Numbered from the stretch's first letter, positions 3,964-16,424 are shown. The stretch: DNA of 64,000 nt from Mobula hypostoma (GCF_963921235.1 NC_086097.1:60328001-60392000), one strand, 5' to 3'. A program made the numbers and translations. The notes: generated from the letters alone by a model not told the origin.

Positions 3964-5182
3964 GACTTCAGTTCAGCATTCAACACAATCATTTCTCAGA
4001 AACTGATTGGAAAGCTGAGCCTACTGGGCCTGAACACCTCCCTCTGCAACTGGATCCTAGACTTCCTGATTGGAAGACTTCAGTCAGTCCAGATTGAAAG
4101 CAGCGTCTCCAACACCATCACACTGAGCACGGGGCCCCCCAGGGCTGTGTGCTCAGTCCACTGCTGTTCACTCTGCTGACTCACGACTGTGCTGCAACAC
4201 ACAGCTCGAACCACATCATCAAGTTCACCGATGACACGACCGTGGTGGGTCTCATCAGCAAGAGCGATGAGTCAGCATACAGAGAGGAGGTGCAGTGGCT
4301 AACGGACTGGTGCAGAGCTAACAACCTGTCTCTGAATGTGAATAAAGCAAAAGAGATGGTTGTTGACTTCAGGAGGAGACGGAGCGACCACTCTCCACTG
4401 AATACTGACGACTCCTCCATAGAGATTGTTAAGAGCACCAAATTTCTTGGTGTTCTCCTGGCGGAGAATCTCACCTGGTCCCTCAACACCAGCTCCATAG
4501 CAAAGAAAGCCCAGCAGTGTCTCTACTTTCTGCGAAGGCTGAGAAAAGTCCATCTCCCACCCCCCATCCTCACCACATTCTACAGAGGTTGTATTGAGAG
4601 CATCCTGAGCAGCTGCATCACTGCCTGGTTCGGAAATTGCACCATCTCGGATCACAAGACCCTGCAGTGGATGGTGAGGTCAGTTGAGATGATCATCGAG
4701 GTCTCTCTTCCCACCATTACAGACATTTACTCCACACGCTGCATTCGTAAAGCAACCAGCATTATGAAGGACCCCAAGCACCCCTCATACAAACTCTTCT
4801 CCCTCCTGCCATCTGGTAAAAGGCACCAAAGCATTCAGGCTCTCACGACCAGACTATGTAACGGGTTCTTCCCCCAAGCCATCAGTCTCCTCAATGCACA
4901 GAGCCTGGGCTGGCACCAACCTACTGCCCTCTACTGTGCCTATTGTCTTGTTTATTATTTATTGTAATGTCTGCACTGTTTTGTGCACCTTATGCAGTCC
5001 TGGGTAGATCTGTAGTCTAGTGTAGTTTTTGTGTTGTTTTACGTAGTTCAGTGTAGTTCTTGTATTGTTTCATGTAGCACCATGGCCCTGAAAAACGTTG
5101 TCTCGTTTTTACTGTGTACTGTGGCAGCAGTTATGGTCGAAATGACAATAAAAAGTAACTTGACTTGACTTGACTTGACTTG
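3964..5182 (+). mobile_element. Rex1/Babar-type non-LTR retrotransposon, 5'-truncated
   Basis: RT motifs [43 protein letters not shown] (ORFs 3865-4179, 4149-4967); AATAAA then (GACTT)n tail at 5147-5182. Confidence 0.85.
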
Positions 5183-5940
5183 CAGAAAACAATGATTGCA
5201 AATAAGTGAGTAAAAATTTGACCAAACATTCATATTCCCCGTGTTACAGTAACTAGAAAGCTAAAATTTCAACAAACATTAGTTAGAAGTGCGCGCAAAA
5301 TGTACCTTCCCAATGGTGATGTGCATCGCCTGCCTTAAACAAAGAGAAAGAAAGAACCTCCTGCACATACTCCCTATATACCCATGATAATTGAAACTGG
5401 ACACCAGGCAGCTATTCAATGGGGAGAGCACCTGCAGTTTCTAAACTAACCAATCATGACTAAAGTGACTTTTGACAATCAGAACAAGTGACACCTCCCC
5501 CCCCAAAAAAAAAACTCCATTGGACATGACCCCAGCTTGCTTCAGGTACATTTGGTGAAAATTATATTCCTTGATATTGTTGGCTAGCTCAGATGGAATT
5601 TTGTTCTTAATCTTTGTAGGTATCGTCTTCATCACATTTTGTTTTTCTGAAACTTCGCATACACATGGGATGGGGTTAAGGGTGAAGTATCTAGCATGGA
5701 TCATTCTTCTTCCTTCCCCTTACTCTAGTGATGTTAAAGTAAAAGCATGCTGATATCACCCACTGGAATTCCCAATGAGTGGGCATCAGTGGTTGAGTGA
5801 GTTGCCTGCCCTGTTCGAAGTAAACCAAACAACAAAAGAAATTAAAGCAGGAGGATCCTACCATTCTGCACCTTCCAATAAAATTACTGGCAGATCTATT
5901 ACTTTCCTGCAACATACCCATATCTATTGGTTCCCTTCAA

Positions 5941-6389
5941 GAAACTAGAAGTAGAAAAAAAACACATGACCCTTGAACATATTCTGCCATTCAATAGCAT
6001 CATGGTTGATCTAACTGTCATCTTAACTCTGCATTAACACCCGCTTTCAATCTATCACCCCTAAACTTATCAAGAATGAATCTAATTCTGTCTTTAAAAT
6101 ATTCAAAGATTCTTTTTCTACTGCACTTCACGAAGAGTTCAAGAGACCTATGACCATCTGAGAGAAAAAAAAACCTCAATATTTCCGAAATGGATGAACC
6201 CTTATTTGTTAACAATAATCCCTAGTTCTGATTTCTCTCACAAGAGAGATAATCCTAACTCTCAAAATCCACCCCATCGGGGTCTTGTATATTTCAGTCA
6301 ACTCACAATGCACCCCTTTACATTTCAGTTCTCGCTTGTCCAAATTTCCTTTTTTTATCAGCCAACCTGCCCGCACATTTCAGATATTA
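5941..6389 (-). mobile_element. old CR1 3' remnant
   Basis: Degenerate similarity to CR1 3' ends elsewhere in the window. Confidence 0.45.
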
Positions 6390-6405
6390 GTTTGGATTCT
6401 CTAGT

Positions 6406-7422
6406 AACACACATAAAAGTTGCTGGTGAACGCAGCAGGACAAGCAGCATCTCTAGGAAGAGGTACAGTCGACATCTTGGGCTGAGACCCTTCATCAGGA
6501 CTAACTGAAAGAAGAGCTAGTAAGGGATTTGAAAGTGGGAGGGGGAGTGGGAGATCCGAAATGATAGGAGAAGACAGGAGGGGGAGGGATGGAGCCAAAA
6601 GCTGGACAGTTGATTGGCAAAAGGGATATGAGAGGATCATGGGACAGGAGTCCTAGGGAGGAAGAAAAGGGGGAGGGGGGAAAACCAGAGGATGGGCAAG
6701 GGGTATAGTAAGGGGGACAGAGGGAGAAAAAAGAAAGAGAGAAAAAGAATGTGTGTATATAAATAAATAACAGATGGGGTAGGAGGAGGAGGTGGGGCAT
6801 TAGCGGAAGTTTGAGAAGTCAATGTTCATGCCTGGTTACCCAGCCGGAATATAGGGTGTTGTTCCTCCAACCTGAGTGTGGCTGCATCTTGACAGTAGAG
6901 GAGGCCGTGGATAGACATATCAGAATGGGAATGGGACGTGGAATTAAAATGTGTGGCCACTGGGAGATCCTGCTTTCTCTGGTGGACAGAGCGTAGGTGT
7001 TCAGCGAAACGAGTTCCCAGCCTGCGTCGGGTCTCGCCAATATATAGAAGGCCAAATCGGGAGCACCGGACGCAGTATATCACCCCTGCCGACTCACAAG
7101 TGAAGTGTCGTCTCACCTGGAAGGACTGTCTGGGGCCCTGAATGGTGGTAAGGGAGGAAGTGTAAGGGCATGTGTAGCACTTGTTCCGCTTACAAGGATA
7201 AGTGCCTGGAGGGAGATTGGTGGGGAGGGATGGGGGGTATGAATGGACAAGGGAGTCGCGTAGGGAGTGATCCCTGCAGAAAGCAGAGAGAGGGGGGTAG
7301 GGAAAGATGTGTTTCGTGGTGGGATCCCGTTGGTGGTGGCAGAAGTTACGGAGAATTATATTTTGTCCATTGGAGGTTATATGTGTGTTCCTTGAAATTC
7401 CAGCATCTGTAGACTTCCTTGT
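6406..7422 (-). mobile_element. Penelope-like element 3' part (GIY-YIG endonuclease plus terminal repeat)
   Basis: ORF 6826-7116 FTCESAGVIYCVRC..LYIGETRRRLGTRFAEH..VATHFN; 16-bp direct repeat GTTTGGATTCTCTAGT at 6390-6405 and 7423-7438; short inverted terminal copy at 7381-7422. Confidence 0.9.
6467..6502 (-). ncRNA. hammerhead ribozyme-like motif (mutated) in Penelope terminal repeat
   Basis: Minus strand AGTC-CTGATGA-AGGGTCTCAGCCC-AAGATGTC-GACT; GAAA core changed to AAGA. Confidence 0.55.
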
Positions 7423-7800
7423 GTTTGGATTCTCTAGTTTCTGAATTGCTAATTCATTTACATTATTCTTTAAGTACCAGAATGAAAACTACAACAAAGA
7501 CCTCAAAGTTGGTCTCACAGGTCCTGCATGTAATTGAAGCATGTCCTGTCTGCTGTTCTATTTTATTCCCCTTCACAATGAACAATAACATTCTATTAAA
7601 TTTCCCAATTACTTCCCCTGCATGCATACAAGCCTTTGGGAATCTTGAACTAGGCCAGCTAGATTCCCCTACATCTCAGAGCTCTGCACTCTCTCACCAT
7701 TGAGATTAAAGTTCAAAGTAAATGTATTATTGAAGTACATATATGTCCCCATATATGTCATTTTCTTGTGACATACTCAATAAATCTATAGATTAATAAC

Positions 7801-8389
7801 TGTTGCGAGGAATGGGTGAACCCAAACGTGGGACACTTTCACGGAGGTAGAATAATCTGAACAGTGTTTATTAATGGTTACAAGGAAGGCAGTGGAGTGA
7901 GGATTAAGCCGAGGAAAGCAAAGGAGAAAGAGCGAGGCTTGACCGGGGATCGAACCCGGGTCGCTGCGGTGAGAGCGCGGCGTTTAACCGCTAGGCCAGC
8001 GGAGAGTGTAGGACGGCGGCAGGACGAGGCAGAGCAGGGATGCAGACAAGGGTGTGAGCGTGGCTGGAGGAGAACGACAAGCAGGAGGGTGAACGGGAAG
8101 GCAGGCGGAATGCAATGCTCCTGTTAACACGGAAAGATGGAGTTAACATAGGCAAACAACGGCACGGAAACAGAACTTAGAGTACGCAATTCTAAGTGGC
8201 CTAGAACGTGAACTACCACACTGGCTGAAGCAATGATCTGGCGATGGGTGGATGGAAAGCCGGGGTATTTATGCTGCAAGTTAGATGAGATTCAGGTGCA
8301 TCGCAATCAGGAAGCCGGGGAGAAACATGGGGAAAAGGGAATTAGGAGAACATGAGAAATAAACAGGAGGGATGGCCGGGACCGTGACA
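7801..8389 (-). repeat. 3' LTR
   Basis: Direct repeat of 10943-11529; minus strand TGTCACGG...CGCAACA; ATAAATA at 8272-8266; AATAAA near 7866-7871. Confidence 0.95.
7935..8005 (-). other. tRNA-Glu(CTC)-derived module inside 3' LTR
   Basis: Minus strand TGGCCTAGCGG (A box), GCG-CTCTCAC-CGC anticodon arm, CCGGG-TTCGATC-CCCGG T arm (B box); acceptor stem does not pair, so not a functional tRNA gene. Confidence 0.85.
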
Positions 8390-8392
8390 GTA

Positions 8393-8406
8393 CCCCCCTC
8401 CCCCCC
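8393..8406 (-). promoter_or_regulatory. polypurine tract
   Basis: GGGGGGGAGGGGGG then TAC immediately before the 3' LTR. Confidence 0.9.
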
Positions 8407-8551
8407 AACGGGAGCCTCCAGGCGAACCACCAAGCTTGCTCGGATTGTCGACAACCTGAGTGGGAGGAGGGGGTTTGGCAGGAGGGCACAGAGGGCTGAC
8501 AGATACAGGTTTCAATTGGGAGACGTGGAACGTGGGATGAATGTGCATAGA
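8407..8551 (-). pseudogene. Gypsy integrase C-terminal tail
   Basis: [20 protein letters not shown] motif typical of the integrase GPY/F region in this lineage. Confidence 0.85.
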
Positions 8552-9262
8552 TTCATGAGTTTTATTTTGTTGTCTTTTGCATTCTGGATTTGCTTCTCCT
8601 TTATGCTCTTGTTTAATCACAGGAGATGGTTGATTTCTTGATCTTGTTACTGATACTGGTGCTGAAGATGTTCCCAACCTTAAACCAGTTGTTGGTTTCT
8701 CTTTTGTGGAAGTCAGAGAATGCTTTTCTTACTCAGTTACAAACAAATGCTCAGGACTGCTTACCTTCTTAGCTGCACGAGTGGTTGGTTTATTCTGGCT
8801 ACTTGCATCACTGGTCAGGTTTCTTGCTTTATCTTCAACCTTTGTAGTCTTTTCTTGCAATTGTGTTGGACTTTCTTCCTCTTGTGCTTGAACTGGTATG
8901 GCTTCAGCAGGTTCATCCACTACAGCAGATTTCTCCTCTAATTTGTCTTCAGATTTTATCAAATTTTCAATTTGCACCATGTTTCCTGGAGAAGTGTGTG
9001 CAATTTTCTTAGTATCCAGTCTGCTTTCTTTTAAATGCAACTGGGAATTTTCTATATTAGTTCCTTCACTACCAGACTGATCATTTTCAAATCTTTCCCT
9101 TGACCTTGGGAATGTATTTTCAGACCTTTCTTCTAATTTCTCATTACAAAGCTGTTCTGCACTTTGTCCTTAAAACGTGACTGAGTTGTTTCAAAATTAC
9201 CCTTTTCAGATGGTTTCTCACCACCTTGTGCTTTACCTTTTGGGTTTTGCTTGCATGCCTTT
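8552..9262 (-). pseudogene. captured coding-like sequence (E/K/S/T-rich), origin unknown
   Basis: AT-rich relative to flanking Gypsy DNA; one frame is open from 9169 into the integrase tail except for a TAA at 8729-8731; no RT/RNase H/integrase motifs. Confidence 0.6.
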
Positions 9263-9915
9263 TGGACGGGACAGGCTATACAGCTGACTGGTGGGTAATG
9301 AGGCTCCAAGGAGAAGGTCAATCGCGCAGTTGTAAGGGCGATGTGGAGGCAGAGAAAGGGCCCAATGCTTACTAACACCTCTCTAAGATCACGATATTCT
9401 ACTGGAACGGTGGACAAGTCGAGGGGTCAGAGGCGGACGAGGTAGCAGTGATCTCCACTGGGGGGGGGGGAGGGCTGATTGCAGACAAGAGGAATGGCAG
9501 AATGAGCTCCAGCTGACAATCTTCCTGGTGGACCAGTCAATGTGGGAGTTATGTCGGCCTAGCCACAGGTGGCCAAGAAATAAAGGGGCATGAGGAGAGG
9601 AGATTAGATTCAACCGTATCTGTTCCCGATGGTTTCCGGAGAGAAGGAAAAGCAGGGGTTCTGTGCAGTGCGTGACACGGTCCAGGAGTCTACCGTTTAG
9701 CGCATTGACGTCCGGGGGGTACACAGAGGCTCACGAGGAATACCGGCTTGGAGGGCTAGGTTTTCATCCAGGAAGTTTCCCTCTGTGCCAGAGTCCACCA
9801 GTGCTCGCAGAGGCAAGGACTGCTGATTATGATATAGAGTGGCTTGAAGCTGCATTCGGGGTCGGGGGACGAAAGGGAAGGTTGTCTGGCTCACCAGGGT
9901 CCCCACTGCTACTGG
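9263..9915 (-). pseudogene. pol: Gypsy aspartic protease and pre-RT linker, frameshifted
   Basis: [57 protein letters not shown]. Confidence 0.88.
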
Positions 9916-9929
9916 TGAGCCCCACCTTT

Positions 9930-10926
9930 TTGGCCGAAGAGGACAGGAGGCAAGAAAGTGGCCAGACTGACTGCAAAATAGTCACTCACCCGCTCTCATT
10001 CTCTGGAGTCGTTCAGCGGGAGAAAGGTGGGCCCGCCCCAGCTGCATGGGTTCCTCTCCTGGGGCAGTTGAATCGGCAGGGCTGGGAGCTACTTGGGGTG
10101 CAGAAGTGGGAGAGAGGCTTGTTCTGGCGAGAGACGGTAAAGAGAGCCGAGAAGTGGCCAAAGGTGGTTGACGACCAGTTCTCTCTCTACGGTGCTCCCA
10201 GAGGCGATTGTCCAACCTGGTGGCCAGGGAGATCAGGGAATCCAGGCTGTCGGAATCGTCTCTCGTCGCCGGTTCGTCCTTCACCAGGTCGCTATGTCCA
10301 CACAGAAATCTCCCCGGAGCGACTCATCGTTCCACCCTGAGTCGGCTGCCAATGTCCGGAACTCCACTGAATATTCAGCAACTGCGGGAGGCCTGGCGGA
10401 GAGTGAGTAGGCACTTAGCTGGGTGATCGAAGACCTTTCTCATCTCTGCAATGGGACTGGCGAGAGAGGAGCAGATATCAGATTGGTTGTCCCAAACTGC
10501 TGTGGCCCACGCTGATGCGTTTCCCCTTAGCAACTCAATGACATAAGCAACTTTAGATTTATCTGTGGAGTAGGTCAACGGCTGCTGCTCAAACACCAGG
10601 GAGCATTGAAGGAGGAAACCCCGGAACTTCCCCAGATCTCCAGCATAGTGCTCCAGCTCTGGTACGTGAGGGTCTCTGGGCGGGGGTGTTGGTGAAACTT
10701 GGGGGGTTACCGCTACAGGCTGTCTGGGCTGGCTAGGCTGGGTTCCAGGTGTGGGTTGAGTGATATGAGTGGAGACACGGTCCACCTGGTTACCGATCTG
10801 TGTGATGTGAGCAGACAGGGAACGAAGGTTCTCCATCACCTCCCGGAGGTGTTGGTCGTGCTGTCCCAGTAGGGAACCCTGACTGGTGAGGGCTTGTTGG
10901 ATGGTGTTTGTGTCTGCTGGGTCCAT
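9930..10926 (-). pseudogene. gag: Gypsy gag (PEG10/RTL1-like capsid, CCHC knuckle), disrupted
   Basis: GCCACCATG start; YAGDLGKFRGFLLQCSLVFEQQP, WATAVW, FDHP, LISLATRLDNRL, EEPMQLG, *LFCSQSGHFLASC. Confidence 0.9.
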
Positions 10927-10930
10927 GGTG

Positions 10931-10941
10931 GCCAGATCGTT
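10931..10941 (-). promoter_or_regulatory. self-priming primer-binding site
   Basis: AACGATCTGGC 1 nt after the 5' LTR, not a TGG-starting tRNA PBS; complementary to LTR sequence at 11374-11383 and 8232-8242. Confidence 0.75.
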
Positions 10942-10942
10942 C

Positions 10943-11529
10943 TGTTGCGAGGAATGGGTGAACCCAAACGCAGGACACTGACATGGAGGTAGAGTAATCT
11001 GAAGACTGTGTATTAATGGTTACAGGGAAGGCAGGGGAGTGAGGATTAGGCTGAGGAAAGCAGAGGAGAAAGAGCGAGGCTTGACTGGGGATCGAACCCA
11101 GGTCGCTGCGGTGAGAGTGCGGCGTTTAACCGCTAAGCCAGCGGAGGGTGTAGGTGGGTAGTGGGACGAGGCAGAGCAGGGATGCAGACCAGGGTGTGAG
11201 TGTGGCTGGAGGAGAACGGCAGGCAGGAGGATGAACGGGAAGGCAGGCGGCATGCAATGCTCCTGTTAACACGGAGAGACAGAGTTAACACAGGCAAACA
11301 ACAGCGCGGAAACAAAGCTTAGAGTACACAATTCTAAGCGGCCTAGAACATGAACTGCCACACTGGCTGAAGCAACGATCTGGTGACGAGTGGATGGAAA
11401 GCCGGGGTACTTATGCTGCAGGTCAGATGAGATTCAGGTGCGCCGCAATCAGGGGAACAGGAGAAACACTGGGAAAAGGGAATTAGGAGAACATGAGGAA
11501 TAAATGGGAGGGACGGAGGGACCGTGACA
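10943..11529 (-). repeat. 5' LTR
   Basis: Direct repeat of 7801-8389, roughly one mismatch per 10 nt by eye. Confidence 0.95.
11077..11147 (-). other. tRNA-Glu(CTC)-derived module inside 5' LTR
   Basis: Minus strand TGGCTTAGCGG A box, CTCTCAC loop, GGTTCGATCCC B box. Confidence 0.85.
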
Positions 11530-11672
11530 ATAACAGAATCATTGAAACATTGCCCAGCCCAGGCATTCAACCAAAGTGCAGAAAACAGCAAACTGTGCAA
11601 ATAAAAAAAGAAATAATAAATAGATAGAGAGATAGACAGATAACTAAATACGCAAGCAAGCAAGCAAGCAAT

Positions 11673-12214
11673 TGTTGTAGCGTGGATGAATTTACCGGAG
11701 AGACAGTCACTGGTAGATACAAAGCAACTTCTTTATTCGACACAACAAGGTACAACAGGCATCTCGAGGCGCTTTCCGCAGAAAGGTCTGCTAGCTAAAA
11801 TGTGAGCTCGATATTTATATGCTAAACACAAAGGCAATCGCTACTTAAACAGTTACAGACAATGCTTCCTTTTGAAGTTACATACAAACATCACACCTTC
11901 GGATTTCATCCTTTCCTTCTGATGCCAACATGTCCATGTTGGTATCCACAGCCTTTAGTTCAATCCACAATACATTTATTTGGCATTTTACATGCTAACA
12001 TAGAAGACAATTAATATTTATAATGTATAGATAAGACTATCTTCAAAACTACAGCATCAGGCACCAGAAACATCTGGTATTTACACCTTTTAGGAAGCCC
12101 ATTGTGGTGGACTCAATCCACAGTCCTTTGTCAAACAGTTAAAATAGACGTCTGGTGGCCAAAGTCATTTAAGTGTTAACAAATCATCTACCCAAAAAGA
12201 AATCCACTCTAACA
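11673..12214 (-). mobile_element. solo LTR
   Basis: TGTT...AACA ends, perfect 5-bp TSD GCAAT, AATAAA on the minus strand near the end; related to 16013-16424. Confidence 0.85.
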
Positions 12215-12455
12215 GCAATAAATATCGAAAACATAAGATGAAGAGTCCCTGAAAGTGAGAACATTGATTGTGGGAACATGATGGACTGTGCTATATGTAC
12301 TACTTTTTATAGGAATTTCTGTTCAAAGGCATTGGTGTTTCCATATCAGGCTGCGAAGCAGCAAGTCAGTATACTCTCCACAACACATCTATAGAAGTTT
12401 TGCTAAGTTTTAGATGTCATGCTGAATCTCCGTGAACTCCTGAGGAAGTAGAGAG

Positions 12456-13380
12456 CATACAAGGCATTGAGCTAATCTGGAAGCAAAGCCCTGCTGTCAC
12501 CTATGTCACTTGATTTAACTTTGTAAGAGGTGTTAGTATTCAACCCCTGCCACAACTGTCAAGCATCCTTCAGTGATTCAGAGTTAGTCTAGAATTGCCA
12601 CTTTGCCCATGAGATAGCTTTCCAGAGATCATACCTGGACCTTTTGTAACTTTCTTGGTCACCAGACTTGAATGTCCTTAGCAGACTATGGATCTCATGG
12701 TTCAATCAGGACTTTTTATTGGGGAAGACTCTGAATATTTTATGGAGACACACTCATCTACTATTGCTTTAATAAATTCTGTTACAATCATTGTGTATTG
12801 ATTCAGATCCACAGAGTCTTTGAACATGGCCCAATCCAACTACTCAAAGTAATCCGGTAGCCACTCATCTTCCTCCTGCAACCATATCTTTGTTGTCCAA
12901 ATCTCAGGAGCTTTGCTCTTTAGCCTCTACCTCTATGCAGGTAGAAGAAGGACAGCCAAGTGATCAGATTTATCAAACTGCAGTCTAGGCATGGAATTGT
13001 AGATATTCCTTATCTTAGTGTAACAGTGGTGTAGTGTGTTGAGACCTCTGGTGCTATAGGTTATATGCTGATGGTAATTGGACAGGATTTTCCGCAAACC
13101 AGTCTGGTTGAAGTCCCTGACTATGATTTGAAATACATTGGGATAGACTGTCTCTTGCTTGGAGATGATGTCATGCAGTACCTCAAGTGCTTGAATGTAA
13201 TTGGCTGCTGGTTGGTTGTATGTAAACTGCAACTGGTATCACAGATGAGAACTCCCTAGGTAAATAGAATGGATGGTATTTGACTGTTAGGTGTTCAAGG
13301 TTGGGTGGAACACAAGTTCAACAAAACTGCTACATTGGAGCACCTCCAAGAGTTTATCATGAAACATTCATCTCCATCTT
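12456..13380 (-). mobile_element. Rex1/Babar-type LINE endonuclease region
   Basis: ORF 12933-13232 IVRDFNQ..TRGLNTLHHCY..SDHLAVLLLPA (APE-type endonuclease motifs). Confidence 0.75.
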
Positions 13381-13678
13381 TTGTTTAATTTATTTGTTTT
13401 ATTGTTATACAGTGTAGAGTAGGGTCTTTCAGCCCTTCAAGGTGTGTTGCCCAGCAACTCCTGATTTTACCCTAGCCCAATTACAGACCATTTACAATGA
13501 CCACTTAACCTACCAATCGCTATGTCTTTGGAATGTGGGAGGAAACAGGAACACCCAGATGAATCCCATGCAGTCATGTGGAGAACGTACGAACTCCATA
13601 CAGACAGCAGTGGGATTTGAACCTGGGTTGCTTGTATTGTAAAGTGTTGTGCTGATCACTATGCTACCATGCTATCCC
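13381..13678 (-). mobile_element. tRNA-derived V-domain SINE (HE1-like)
   Basis: tRNA-like head (GGTAGCATAGTG, GGTTCAAATCC), V-domain-like GGAGTTCGTACGTTCTCC..GTTTCCTCCCACA, A-rich tail. Confidence 0.75.
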
Positions 13679-13800
13679 ACTTGTCTTTTCCTGAATCTGC
13701 AGTTTGGTCCATTTGATAAATTGAGAAGCCTTCCGGTTTGTGTGCTGCATCTGGCATGCTGGGAGACCTCCAAATTTCACCAGACATAGAATACAACAAT

Positions 13801-14294
13801 CTCTCTTTCTTTCTTTCTTTTTAAATCTTTTTCTTAATTTTCCAAAATTATAAACAGAATAACAATATTGATACAGAGAGATTGGAATAATCTTATTGCT
13901 GATAAACATGTACAAAAAAGATTTCAAATAATACAGATGTAATAGACTTCCAAACTCTTAATATAGTCGATCATAGAGAAAAAAGAAATAAAAAGAAAAA
14001 AAAATACAAAGAAAACCCCCCCCAAAAAACCCCCAAAAAACTAAATACTAAGCCCCCCAAAGAAAGCAAATGGAACAAAACAAGGCTGGACCAATATGTT
14101 AAATACAAAACGTTCCATAATGTCGTCAACTCCGCTCCTCTATTCATATATTTTAGGTTAATAAGAAGGATTTGGAAAGGTCAAATTACATCATATGAAA
14201 ATGTTGAATAAATGGTTTCCAAGTCTCTTCAGATTTAACTGAAGGATCAAAAATGTCACTTCTGATTTTTTGTAAATTTAAACATCATATAGTT
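13801..14294 (-). mobile_element. L1-clade LINE 3' end
   Basis: Minus translation CLNLQKIR..EETWKPFIQHF resembles the fish-type L1 ORF2 C-terminus; T-rich UTR and A-rich tail. Confidence 0.6.
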
Positions 14295-14550
14295 TCAAAC
14301 TTTCAGTTCCTTCTGATACAGCAATCTTGCCCTCAAGTTCCCAGTTTTGTTCTCCAGCAACTGCACATTTGCTAACAAGATGCTGGGTTCATCGCTTTGT
14401 GTTTCAGCCTGGTCTGCCCACCCAGCCGCCACCCACCTCACTTCCAGCCGTGGCAGTGAAGCAGACCAGAACATTTGTCTGCTTAAAGGTGCCATATTTG
14501 TCTGGTCCACCAAGACCTTCAGTCGATCATGAAATCTGTAGATCATTAAA
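14295..14550 (-). mobile_element. Rex1/Babar-type 5' fragment
   Basis: PSILLANVQLLENK..LRARLLYQ (endonuclease N-terminus); plausibly the upstream part of 12456-13380. Confidence 0.65.
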
Positions 14551-14679
14551 CTAATTTAAATGTACATTGTTTAGAGGGAAACTACATGCTGCAGATTGCA
14601 GTGAGAGTAATTCAAAAGAGGTACACTTAAAGAGCATGTTTAGAAGTATTGTCCACAGCCCAGAGAGCATCACCATGGT

Positions 14680-15466
14680 TCCAGATGTTAGGAAGGGTAA
14701 GGTGAAGGGACACATACCAATCCTCATAGAGGGATCAGAAGTGGAGAGAGTGAGCAGCTTCAAGTTCCTGGGTGTCAAGATCTCTGCGGATCTAACCTGG
14801 TCCCAACACATCGATGCAGTTATAAAGAAGTCAAGACAGTGGCTATACTTTATTAGGAGTTTGAAGAGATTTGGTATGTCAACAAATACACTCAAAAAAT
14901 TGTATAGTTGTACAGCGGAGAGCATTCTGACAGGCTTTGTTACTGTCTGGTATGGAGGGGCTACTGCACAGGACCGAAAGAAGCTGCAGATGGTTGTAAA
15001 TCTAGTCAGCTCCATCTCGGGCACTAGCCTACAAAGTATCCAGGACATCTTTAGGGAGTGGTGTCTCAGAAAGGCAGCATCCATTATTAAGGACGTCCAG
15101 CAACCAGAGCATGCCGTTTTCTCACTGTTACCATCGGGTAGGAGGTACAGAAGCCAGAAGGCGCACACTCAGCGATTCAGGAACAGCTTCTTCCCCTCTG
15201 CCAACCGATTCCTAAATGGACATTGAGTTTTTGGACACTACCTCACTTATTTTTTAAATATACAGTATTTCTGTTTTTGCACTTTTTAAAATCTATTCAA
15301 TATATGTAATTGATGTACTTGTTTATTTATTATTATTATTATTTTTTTAAATTTTATATATTATTTTTTCCCTGCTAGATTATGTACTGCATTGAAGTGC
15401 TGCTGCTAAGTTAACAAATTTCATGTCACACACCGGTGATAATAAACCTGATTCTGATTCTGATTC
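14680..15466 (+). mobile_element. Rex1/Babar-type LINE 3' fragment
   Basis: VERVSSFKFLGV..LTW..LLPSGRRYRS..RFRNSFFP; AATAAA then (CTGATT)n tail. Confidence 0.85.
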
Positions 15467-16012: not shown

Positions 16013-16424
16013 TGTTGTCGCGTGAATGAAATCACCAGAGAGATAGTTACTGGTAGATACAAAGCAGCTTCTTTATTCGACAAAACATGGTTCAGCAGGC
16101 ATCATATAGACAGAGACGCTTTCAGTGGAAAGGTCTGCTGCCCAATGTGGGGCTCGATATTTATTTGCTACACACAAAGGGCAATTCATATTTACAAAGT
16201 ATAGACAATGCTTTTTTTTGAATCTATATACAAAACTTAACACCTGATTACATTCATCAAACAGACACCAGCAGGTCTGGGCTGGTATTCACAGTTTGGG
16301 AAATTGTTACAAATGGATTCGGATTCTGATATCCACAGCTTTAGGAAATGCATTGTTACAGAAGACTGGTGGCCAAAGCCATTTACTAAGTGTGAATGAC
16401 CTAAACCCAAAAATTATTCTAACA
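16013..16424 (-). mobile_element. solo LTR
   Basis: TGTT...AACA ends, TSD GGCAG/GACAG, cleanly interrupts CR1; homologous to 11673-12214. Confidence 0.85.

Follow-up and report, generated by a model that had tools for sequence, protein, structure and literature searches.

Sequences derived from transfer RNA (tRNA) genes have been described inside the long terminal repeats (LTRs) borne by Helenus elements, classed as TRIMp3 (Kojima 2024, PMC10886601). According to the sections of that paper available to us, these elements are 311-1263 bp long, non-coding and tRNA-primed, have 4-bp target-site duplications (TSDs) in animals and include vertebrate examples from coelacanth, sturgeon and zebrafish; an RNA polymerase III (Pol III) promoter is proposed as their driver. 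The same sections mention that 'not a few LTRs' in Repbase have tRNA-like parts, confine the analysis to elements shorter than 1 kb, and hold that TRIMp3 elements should not share LTRs with coding partners. The Helenus model needs a step at which the head of a tRNA gene enters an LTR, which had earlier been documented only in miniature elements. Here we describe a tRNA-Glu(CTC)-derived module in both LTRs of a Gypsy retrotransposon from the ray Mobula hypostoma, located in a 64,000-nt stretch (GCF_963921235.1, NC_086097.1:60328001-60392000) that is called the window below. The element belongs to the sushi-type chromoviruses and resembles Helenus in this LTR feature.

The tRNA-Glu(CTC) module and its place in the LTR

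The initial annotation had reported a tRNA-Glu(CTC)-like sequence with an A box, a B box, a T arm, a CTC loop and a non-pairing acceptor stem in each LTR, and alignment to the host genes bears out both the positions (Table 1) and all of these parts. Seven identical tRNA-Glu(CTC) genes were found in the same genome by a short pattern search. The module copies reached local scores of 86.5 (3' LTR) and 72.5 (5' LTR) against the host gene, where 500 shuffles of each gave at most 43.0 and 42.5, respectively; the isotypes compared were Glu CTC and TTC only. Across 55 distinct LTRs, letters like those of the host gene are found at 54/72 positions, and the 18 positions mostly unlike the tRNA comprise seven in the acceptor stem and discriminator, seven in the D arm and four of the 41 from the anticodon arm to the T arm. 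The CTC loop, the T stem and both boxes are present, the acceptor stem is unpaired, and both copies in the window fit the A and B boxes. The five leading 'tRNA' letters (TCTCC) probably belong to the LTR itself, because a tRNA-free relative described below aligns with them.

The module has neither the cloverleaf with a paired acceptor stem nor the nearby T-tract of a functional tRNA gene. ARAGORN called no tRNA in the window and Rfam returned nothing in 5000-15000 at E<=1, a silence consistent with a broken cloverleaf. These results bear on the idea that the module works as RNA, mimicking a tRNA at each end of the genomic RNA, where it could serve as a packaging or synthetase decoy, an RNase P/Z cut site or a strand-transfer aid. 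The location in the putative R region, the unchanged T stem and the match to the tRNA at 37/41 anticodon-to-T-arm positions would suit such a role. We nevertheless regard it as very improbable, since the acceptor and D stems are missing, both tRNA searches were negative, no predicted fold is a cloverleaf, pair 28/42 of the anticodon stem is mismatched, the T-stem sites are not conserved among the 55 copies (divergence 0.105) and the module is dispensable.

The module was also said to replicate as part of the element, and this is confirmed by its presence in both window LTRs, in the 55 distinct LTR copies and in both LTRs of two elements that cover pol (L209 and L211). The claim that the element does not use tRNA priming likewise stands: the element is of the self-priming type, with a primer binding site (PBS) whose positions 10932-10941 are complementary at 10/10 positions to its own LTR (11374-11383) and which does not start with TGG. 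A TATA-like box is kept and precedes the self-priming site by about 25-30 nt; the RNA would start near 8241 in terms of the 3' LTR. As proposed, the module sits between the self-priming site on its upstream side and AATAAA on its downstream side. We refined the position of AATAAA in the 3' LTR (Table 1); the 5' LTR counterpart reads AATACA. Matches of at least 8/10 to the self-primer were found at the LTR site in 12/15 module-bearing and 10/15 module-free copies.

Two possible functions were rejected on this layout. The module has no complementarity to the PBS, which matches LTR sequence upstream of it, so it is not the primer. If Pol III transcribed from the module, the RNA would begin about 240 nt downstream of the self-primer and leave it out, which excludes the module as replication promoter; in contrast to the transcripts of Cassandra and Helenus, such an RNA presumably could not serve to prime its own reverse transcription.

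Distribution and ancestry of the module

Copies were collected by an LTR search (891 candidates) and a gag search (584 candidates), and 40 of each were scored. The module was present in 30/30 LTR-selected loci, a sample biased towards it. Among gag-selected copies it was present in 15/30, and the other 15 were missing a precise block, about 180 nt long, with a leader, the module, a pyrimidine tract and AATAAA; 12 of these 15 module-free copies have reverse transcriptase (RT) coverage of at least 0.98. The module was not found in 20 RT-selected loci, some of them without a whole LTR, nor was it seen in 28 metagenome relatives, 14 of which had a located LTR end. The initial annotation had named absence from most family members, and a lack of excess conservation of the boxes, as results that would refute its reading; both are borne out in part, the first by the gag-selected sisters and the RT-selected loci and the second by the comparison of copies below. 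Contigs from four other organisms span the module.

Four of the 15 module-bearing gag-selected copies have tblastn coverage of 0.90 or more for RT, RNase H and integrase (which does not mean that the frames are intact), one is truncated and ten lie beside matches to the host gene BOD1L1. The idea that the module is confined to non-autonomous elements was dropped, as four of five further module-bearing copies cover pol. Overall the genome holds three module-free LTR forms: besides the precise block deletion there is a form with a 288-nt gap (L172), with similar joints in two other organisms, and another that retains AATAAA (six pattern matches). The youngest-looking copies belong to the module-free line. 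Divergence between LTR pairs was 0.106 for module-bearing copies (n=9) versus 0.093 and 0.083 (n=14 and 10), which is a trend only (p=0.053).

In module-free ray sushi subfamilies (L169-L188, L212-L226) the final 110 nt of the LTR contain neither AATAAA nor ATTAAA; these subfamilies are numerous all the same and include the youngest-looking copies. Ray subfamilies have multiplied without a canonical poly(A) signal. In a tree of L171-L188 the ray sushi elements make up one lineage of ladder-like shape, in which terminal branches shrink from about 0.08 to 0.01-0.04, which suggests long continuous activity after a single founding event.

Relative to its closest metagenome relative, the tRNA-free fish element L121, the window LTR carries an insertion. 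The LTR 5' of the module aligns to L121 up to position 461 with a score of 146 (shuffle maximum 111.5), and the part 3' of the module resumes at L121 position 456 with a score of 67, which is below the shuffle maximum of 75. The two anchors are 192 nt apart in the window LTR and 112 nt apart in L121, and the module itself scores at shuffle level. AATAAA or a variant of it lies 67-93 nt before the LTR end in 12/14 metagenome relatives with a located end (16 examined), as it does here at 72 nt. Together with the L121 alignment, this placement suggests that the ancestor probably already had the pyrimidine tract and AATAAA, that about 80 nt were probably inserted between TCTCC repeats, and that the module-free ray subfamilies probably lost the 180-nt block by deletion.

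Phylogenetic analyses gave a less definite picture. In free trees the module group fell inside or beside other subfamilies with weak support; one such tree omitted five incomplete ray or outgroup rows and six rows without a match. A constrained tree with the module group as sister to all others had a log-likelihood 9.6 higher (p-value of the approximately unbiased test, 0.73), and two outgroup comparisons split the diagnostic sites evenly (12:11 and 10:11). A candidate scheme in which the module block was gained in a nested clade is weakened by these values.

Origin of the module and proposed use of its boxes

The reading that we favour, with measured confidence, is that the module was captured once by a template switch and then became a dispensable passenger of an element that kept its RNA polymerase II (Pol II) promoter and self-priming. 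Reverse transcription would have switched onto a co-packaged tRNA-derived RNA, leaving about 80 nt of tRNA-Glu(CTC) sequence in the R region of one subfamily. A single capture in R would pass to both LTRs of every descendant, so that presence in the two LTRs needs no function. The module would since have ridden along, with the Pol II promoter and self-priming still in use. Since close sister copies multiplied without the module, it is unlikely to drive the element.

The same lineage captures host RNA. An open frame in the family member L061 matches elasmobranch BOD1L1 proteins at 53-88%, and the host BOD1L1 gene was located on C5 (L265-L267), where its exons are nearly identical to a Mobula protein. 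The element copies carry six BOD1L1 exons joined, with five introns missing, at about 85-97% identity, and in the host gene GT follows the exon ends. Intron-less host exons thus stand between LTRs in place of the internal open reading frames (ORFs), as in LTR-mediated retrocopies. In this non-autonomous subfamily (the window element, L061, L062, L064, L223 and L268), BOD1L1 replaces RT, RNase H and integrase. The chimera is present at about 40 or more loci (about 40 were scored) and in other organisms, and the insert occurs with module-bearing as well as module-free LTRs. Given LTR-mediated retroposition of BOD1L1, a template switch would also be the most economical way for the tRNA piece to have entered. 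In one BOD1L1-bearing sub-lineage (L036, L041, L044) a unit of about 49 nt, located late in gag, is expanded in tandem.

Several points weigh against capture by template switch followed by a passenger existence. No donor RNA was found. Little sequence is shared at the 3' BOD1L1 junction, and microhomology is not evident at the junctions inspected. The alignment of the 3' flank to L121 is not significant alone, and the region is of low complexity. By the trees and diagnostic sites, the ancestor of the module-free subfamilies may or may not have carried the module. The among-copy conservation test described next is low in power because most differences arose after insertion. Finally, fixed differences from the tRNA fall at 0/14 box positions versus 11/46 others (p=0.039), and these box-sparing changes suggest promoter-type constraint, either in an earlier SINE-like (short interspersed element) life or in master elements.

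The initial annotation had proposed that the LTR co-opted the module as an internal promoter, insulator or RNA-structure module. We found no support for this in the spread of sister copies without the module, nor in the boxes, which are not conserved beyond the rest of the LTR: in the 55 module-bearing copies, divergence at non-CpG sites is 0.083 in the boxes versus 0.055 in the LTR (P=0.95 for lower). The B-box A58 is a T in 15/55 copies, including both LTRs of the pol-covering L209, and both boxes fit in 18/55 copies. The first run of four T lies 499-1851 nt beyond the module (13 of 15 copies measured), compared with 5-33 nt in the seven host tRNA genes. One result does favour the proposal, namely the fixed differences that avoid the box positions.

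A version of this idea that accommodates the fixed differences holds that master elements of this subfamily retained working A and B boxes, which recruited TFIIIC as a chromatin barrier or a secondary Pol III promoter against silencing, and that the sisters later dispensed with them. The fit of both window copies to the boxes agrees with it, as does the occurrence of the module in copies covering gag and pol, in 55 distinct LTRs and in contigs of four other organisms. Pol III units are also known in LTRs of autonomous retroelements, namely foamy viruses, from the available portion of PMC3993851. We find it doubtful all the same, given the loss of A58, the missing terminator, the lack of excess box conservation and the youngest-looking copies in the line without the module.

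The box-sparing changes could instead date from an earlier life of the module as the head of an older tRNA-Glu SINE or of a Helenus-like LTR, from which it was inserted or recombined. This concerns the source only and is compatible with a passenger role. In its favour, the module differs from the tRNA by about 20-25% and its copies differ from the commonest letters by about 6% at non-CpG sites; a 5-nt repeat flanks the insertion. Broken D and acceptor stems beside intact boxes, as seen here, are typical of SINE heads. The same combination is stated for Helenus, and a SINE insertion is proposed as the source of such LTRs, in the sections of PMC10886601 available to us.

No free copy of the module was seen, however: 30/30 best matches to a 171-nt block and 18/18 exact pattern matches lie in LTRs of this Gypsy family, a check that covered the best-scoring matches only. 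Dispersed non-LTR copies with their own tail and TSD, as expected of a free tRNA-derived SINE, were accordingly absent from these matches. The module has no A-rich or microsatellite tail, 19 less-than-perfect tRNA-Glu matches examined had no flank in common with it, and its anticodon-loop 10-mer is absent from the Helenus supplement (PMC10886601) in the portion available. A free SINE donor was thus not found among the matches examined, and we consider an origin from a SINE or Helenus head possible but not probable.

Two observations were made among these matches. In L194 (about 1390-1545), one of the 18 pattern matches, the LTR starts exactly at the first position of the module, beside a truncated foreign LTR. 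At six loci (L245, L247, L249, L250, L251 and L255) a full-length but decayed tRNA-Glu(CTC) copy runs straight into a second, SINE-head-like sequence; they possibly represent a dimeric tRNA-Glu SINE family and are not the donor of the module.

Element architecture and comparison with known systems

The features of the window element, a decayed copy of 3729 bp with TG..CA LTR ends and a 5-bp TSD, are listed in Table 1. Family members L207-L209 and L211 retain the order Gag, protease, RT, RNase H and integrase (tblastn coverage), and the window copy has lost the last three. Another member, L062, has a chromodomain (PF00385, E=4.7e-12). Among the Gag homologues, a manta ray has the best (70%), and the others are at about 50% and carry teleost names where named. 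Viral contigs contained no Gag relative and no module pattern. The sushi/Tf1 class was assigned by features, the RT trees containing metagenome relatives and no named sushi/Tf1 references. A second short LTR-like repeat in opposite orientation (11673-11763 and 16013-16103) lies just upstream of the element, and the same repeat interrupts the LTR in L077.

Table 1. Positions of element features in the window
Feature	Position	Strand	Remark
Whole element, sushi/chromovirus-type Gypsy, non-autonomous in this copy	7801..11529	minus	LTR pair differs at 11% of alignment columns
TSD GTTAT, upstream copy	11530..11534	minus	
TSD GTTAT, downstream copy	7796..7800	minus	
5' LTR, 587 nt	10943..11529	minus	
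3' LTR, 589 nt	7801..8389	minus	
TATA-like box, 5' LTR	11408..11415	minus	3' LTR copy 8266-8273; putative function
Self-primer, 10 nt complementary to PBS; putative 5' end of genomic RNA	11374..11383	minus	mechanism by analogy with Tf1/Tj1 (PMC4600332, available sections)
PBS, self-priming type	10932..10942	minus	
tRNA-Glu(CTC)-derived module, 5' LTR copy	11077..11147	minus	by alignment to host genes
gag, broken by stops and frameshifts	9890..10926	minus	DUF4939, weak Ty3 capsid
Protease region up to RT start, broken	9262..9889	minus	
Captured spliced host BOD1L1 mRNA (3' coding part)	8558..9261	minus	internally deleted in this copy; replaces RT, RNase H and integrase core
Integrase C-terminus remnant	8407..8545	minus	SH3 end; chromodomain deleted here, present in L062
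Polypurine tract	8393..8406	minus	
Block of about 180 nt (leader, module, pyrimidine tract, AATAAA)	7854..8036	minus	missing from sister subfamilies
Probable true insertion, about 78-80 nt	7923..8005	minus	flanking TCTCC repeats at 8001-8005 and 7923-7927; by alignment to tRNA-free L121
tRNA-Glu(CTC)-derived module, 3' LTR copy	7935..8005	minus	A box 7988-7998, B box 7947-7955
AATAAA	7867..7872	minus	starts 72 nt before LTR end, as is usual for sushi LTRs of fish

The findings indicate that the LTRs of a coding, self-priming Gypsy element can take up a tRNA head and retain it, and that a host mRNA has been amplified as a non-autonomous LTR element in the same family. The genome also offers natural comparisons with and without the module, namely module-bearing LTRs, three module-free forms, and copies with A58 or T58, so that the barrier or promoter idea is testable with unaltered sequences. 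If the module is a passenger, it is chiefly a clear case of RNA capture by a retrotransposon and a caution for tRNA annotation. As to novelty, tRNA-like LTRs as such were already described with Helenus (PMC10886601, as available), and our literature searches, in the text available, returned no description of this Gypsy family or of a BOD1L1-bearing element; Repbase and Dfam lay outside the search and may hold the family.

The comparisons that follow use the available sections of the papers cited. The BOD1L1 chimera resembles the products of LTR-mediated retroposition (Tan et al. 2016, PMC5131818) in that part of a spliced host mRNA replaces the internal ORFs between intact LTRs and the chimera cycles further as a non-autonomous element. 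It differs in its presence at so many loci and in other organisms; microsimilarity was not clear at the junctions inspected.

With Tf1 and sushi elements (PMC4600332, PMC3601003) the family shares a PBS complementary to the 5' part of the LTR, TG..CA ends, a T-rich LTR with AATAAA near its 3' end, a DUF4939/Ty3-capsid Gag, and an integrase with SH3 and chromodomain in family members; the spacing of the TATA-like box from the PBS-complementary LTR site is the self-priming geometry (PMC4600332). The tRNA-Glu insertion, not seen in the metagenome relatives, and the sister ray subfamilies entirely without AATAAA set it apart. Foamy viruses likewise have Pol III promoter-like boxes in the LTR of a coding retroelement (PMC3993851), but their microRNA (miRNA) cassettes lie in U3, have terminators and yield hairpin miRNAs shown experimentally, whereas the ray module is tRNA-derived, lies in R and has no terminator. 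Cassandra (PMC10886601), a terminal-repeat retrotransposon in miniature (TRIM), also carries a small-RNA-gene sequence in both LTRs; it is a 5S-derived, non-coding, Pol III-transcribed plant element.

The closest likeness is to Helenus (PMC10886601), which shares a tRNA-derived sequence with a non-functional cloverleaf and A and B boxes in both LTRs. The ray element is not a Helenus TRIM: it is neither miniature nor non-coding, its PBS matches its own LTR and does not start with TGG, and its TSD is not of 4 bp. It may be a coding counterpart of Helenus, a full-length self-priming chromovirus that took the head of a tRNA gene into R, with boxes selected as a TFIIIC barrier, and possibly an intermediate in the birth of TRIMp3 elements, although we judge this unlikely. 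What distinguishes it from Helenus is its size of 3.7-5.5 kb, its gag(-pol) coding capacity, self-priming, a 5-bp TSD, a TATA-like box that was kept and a module that is dispensable.

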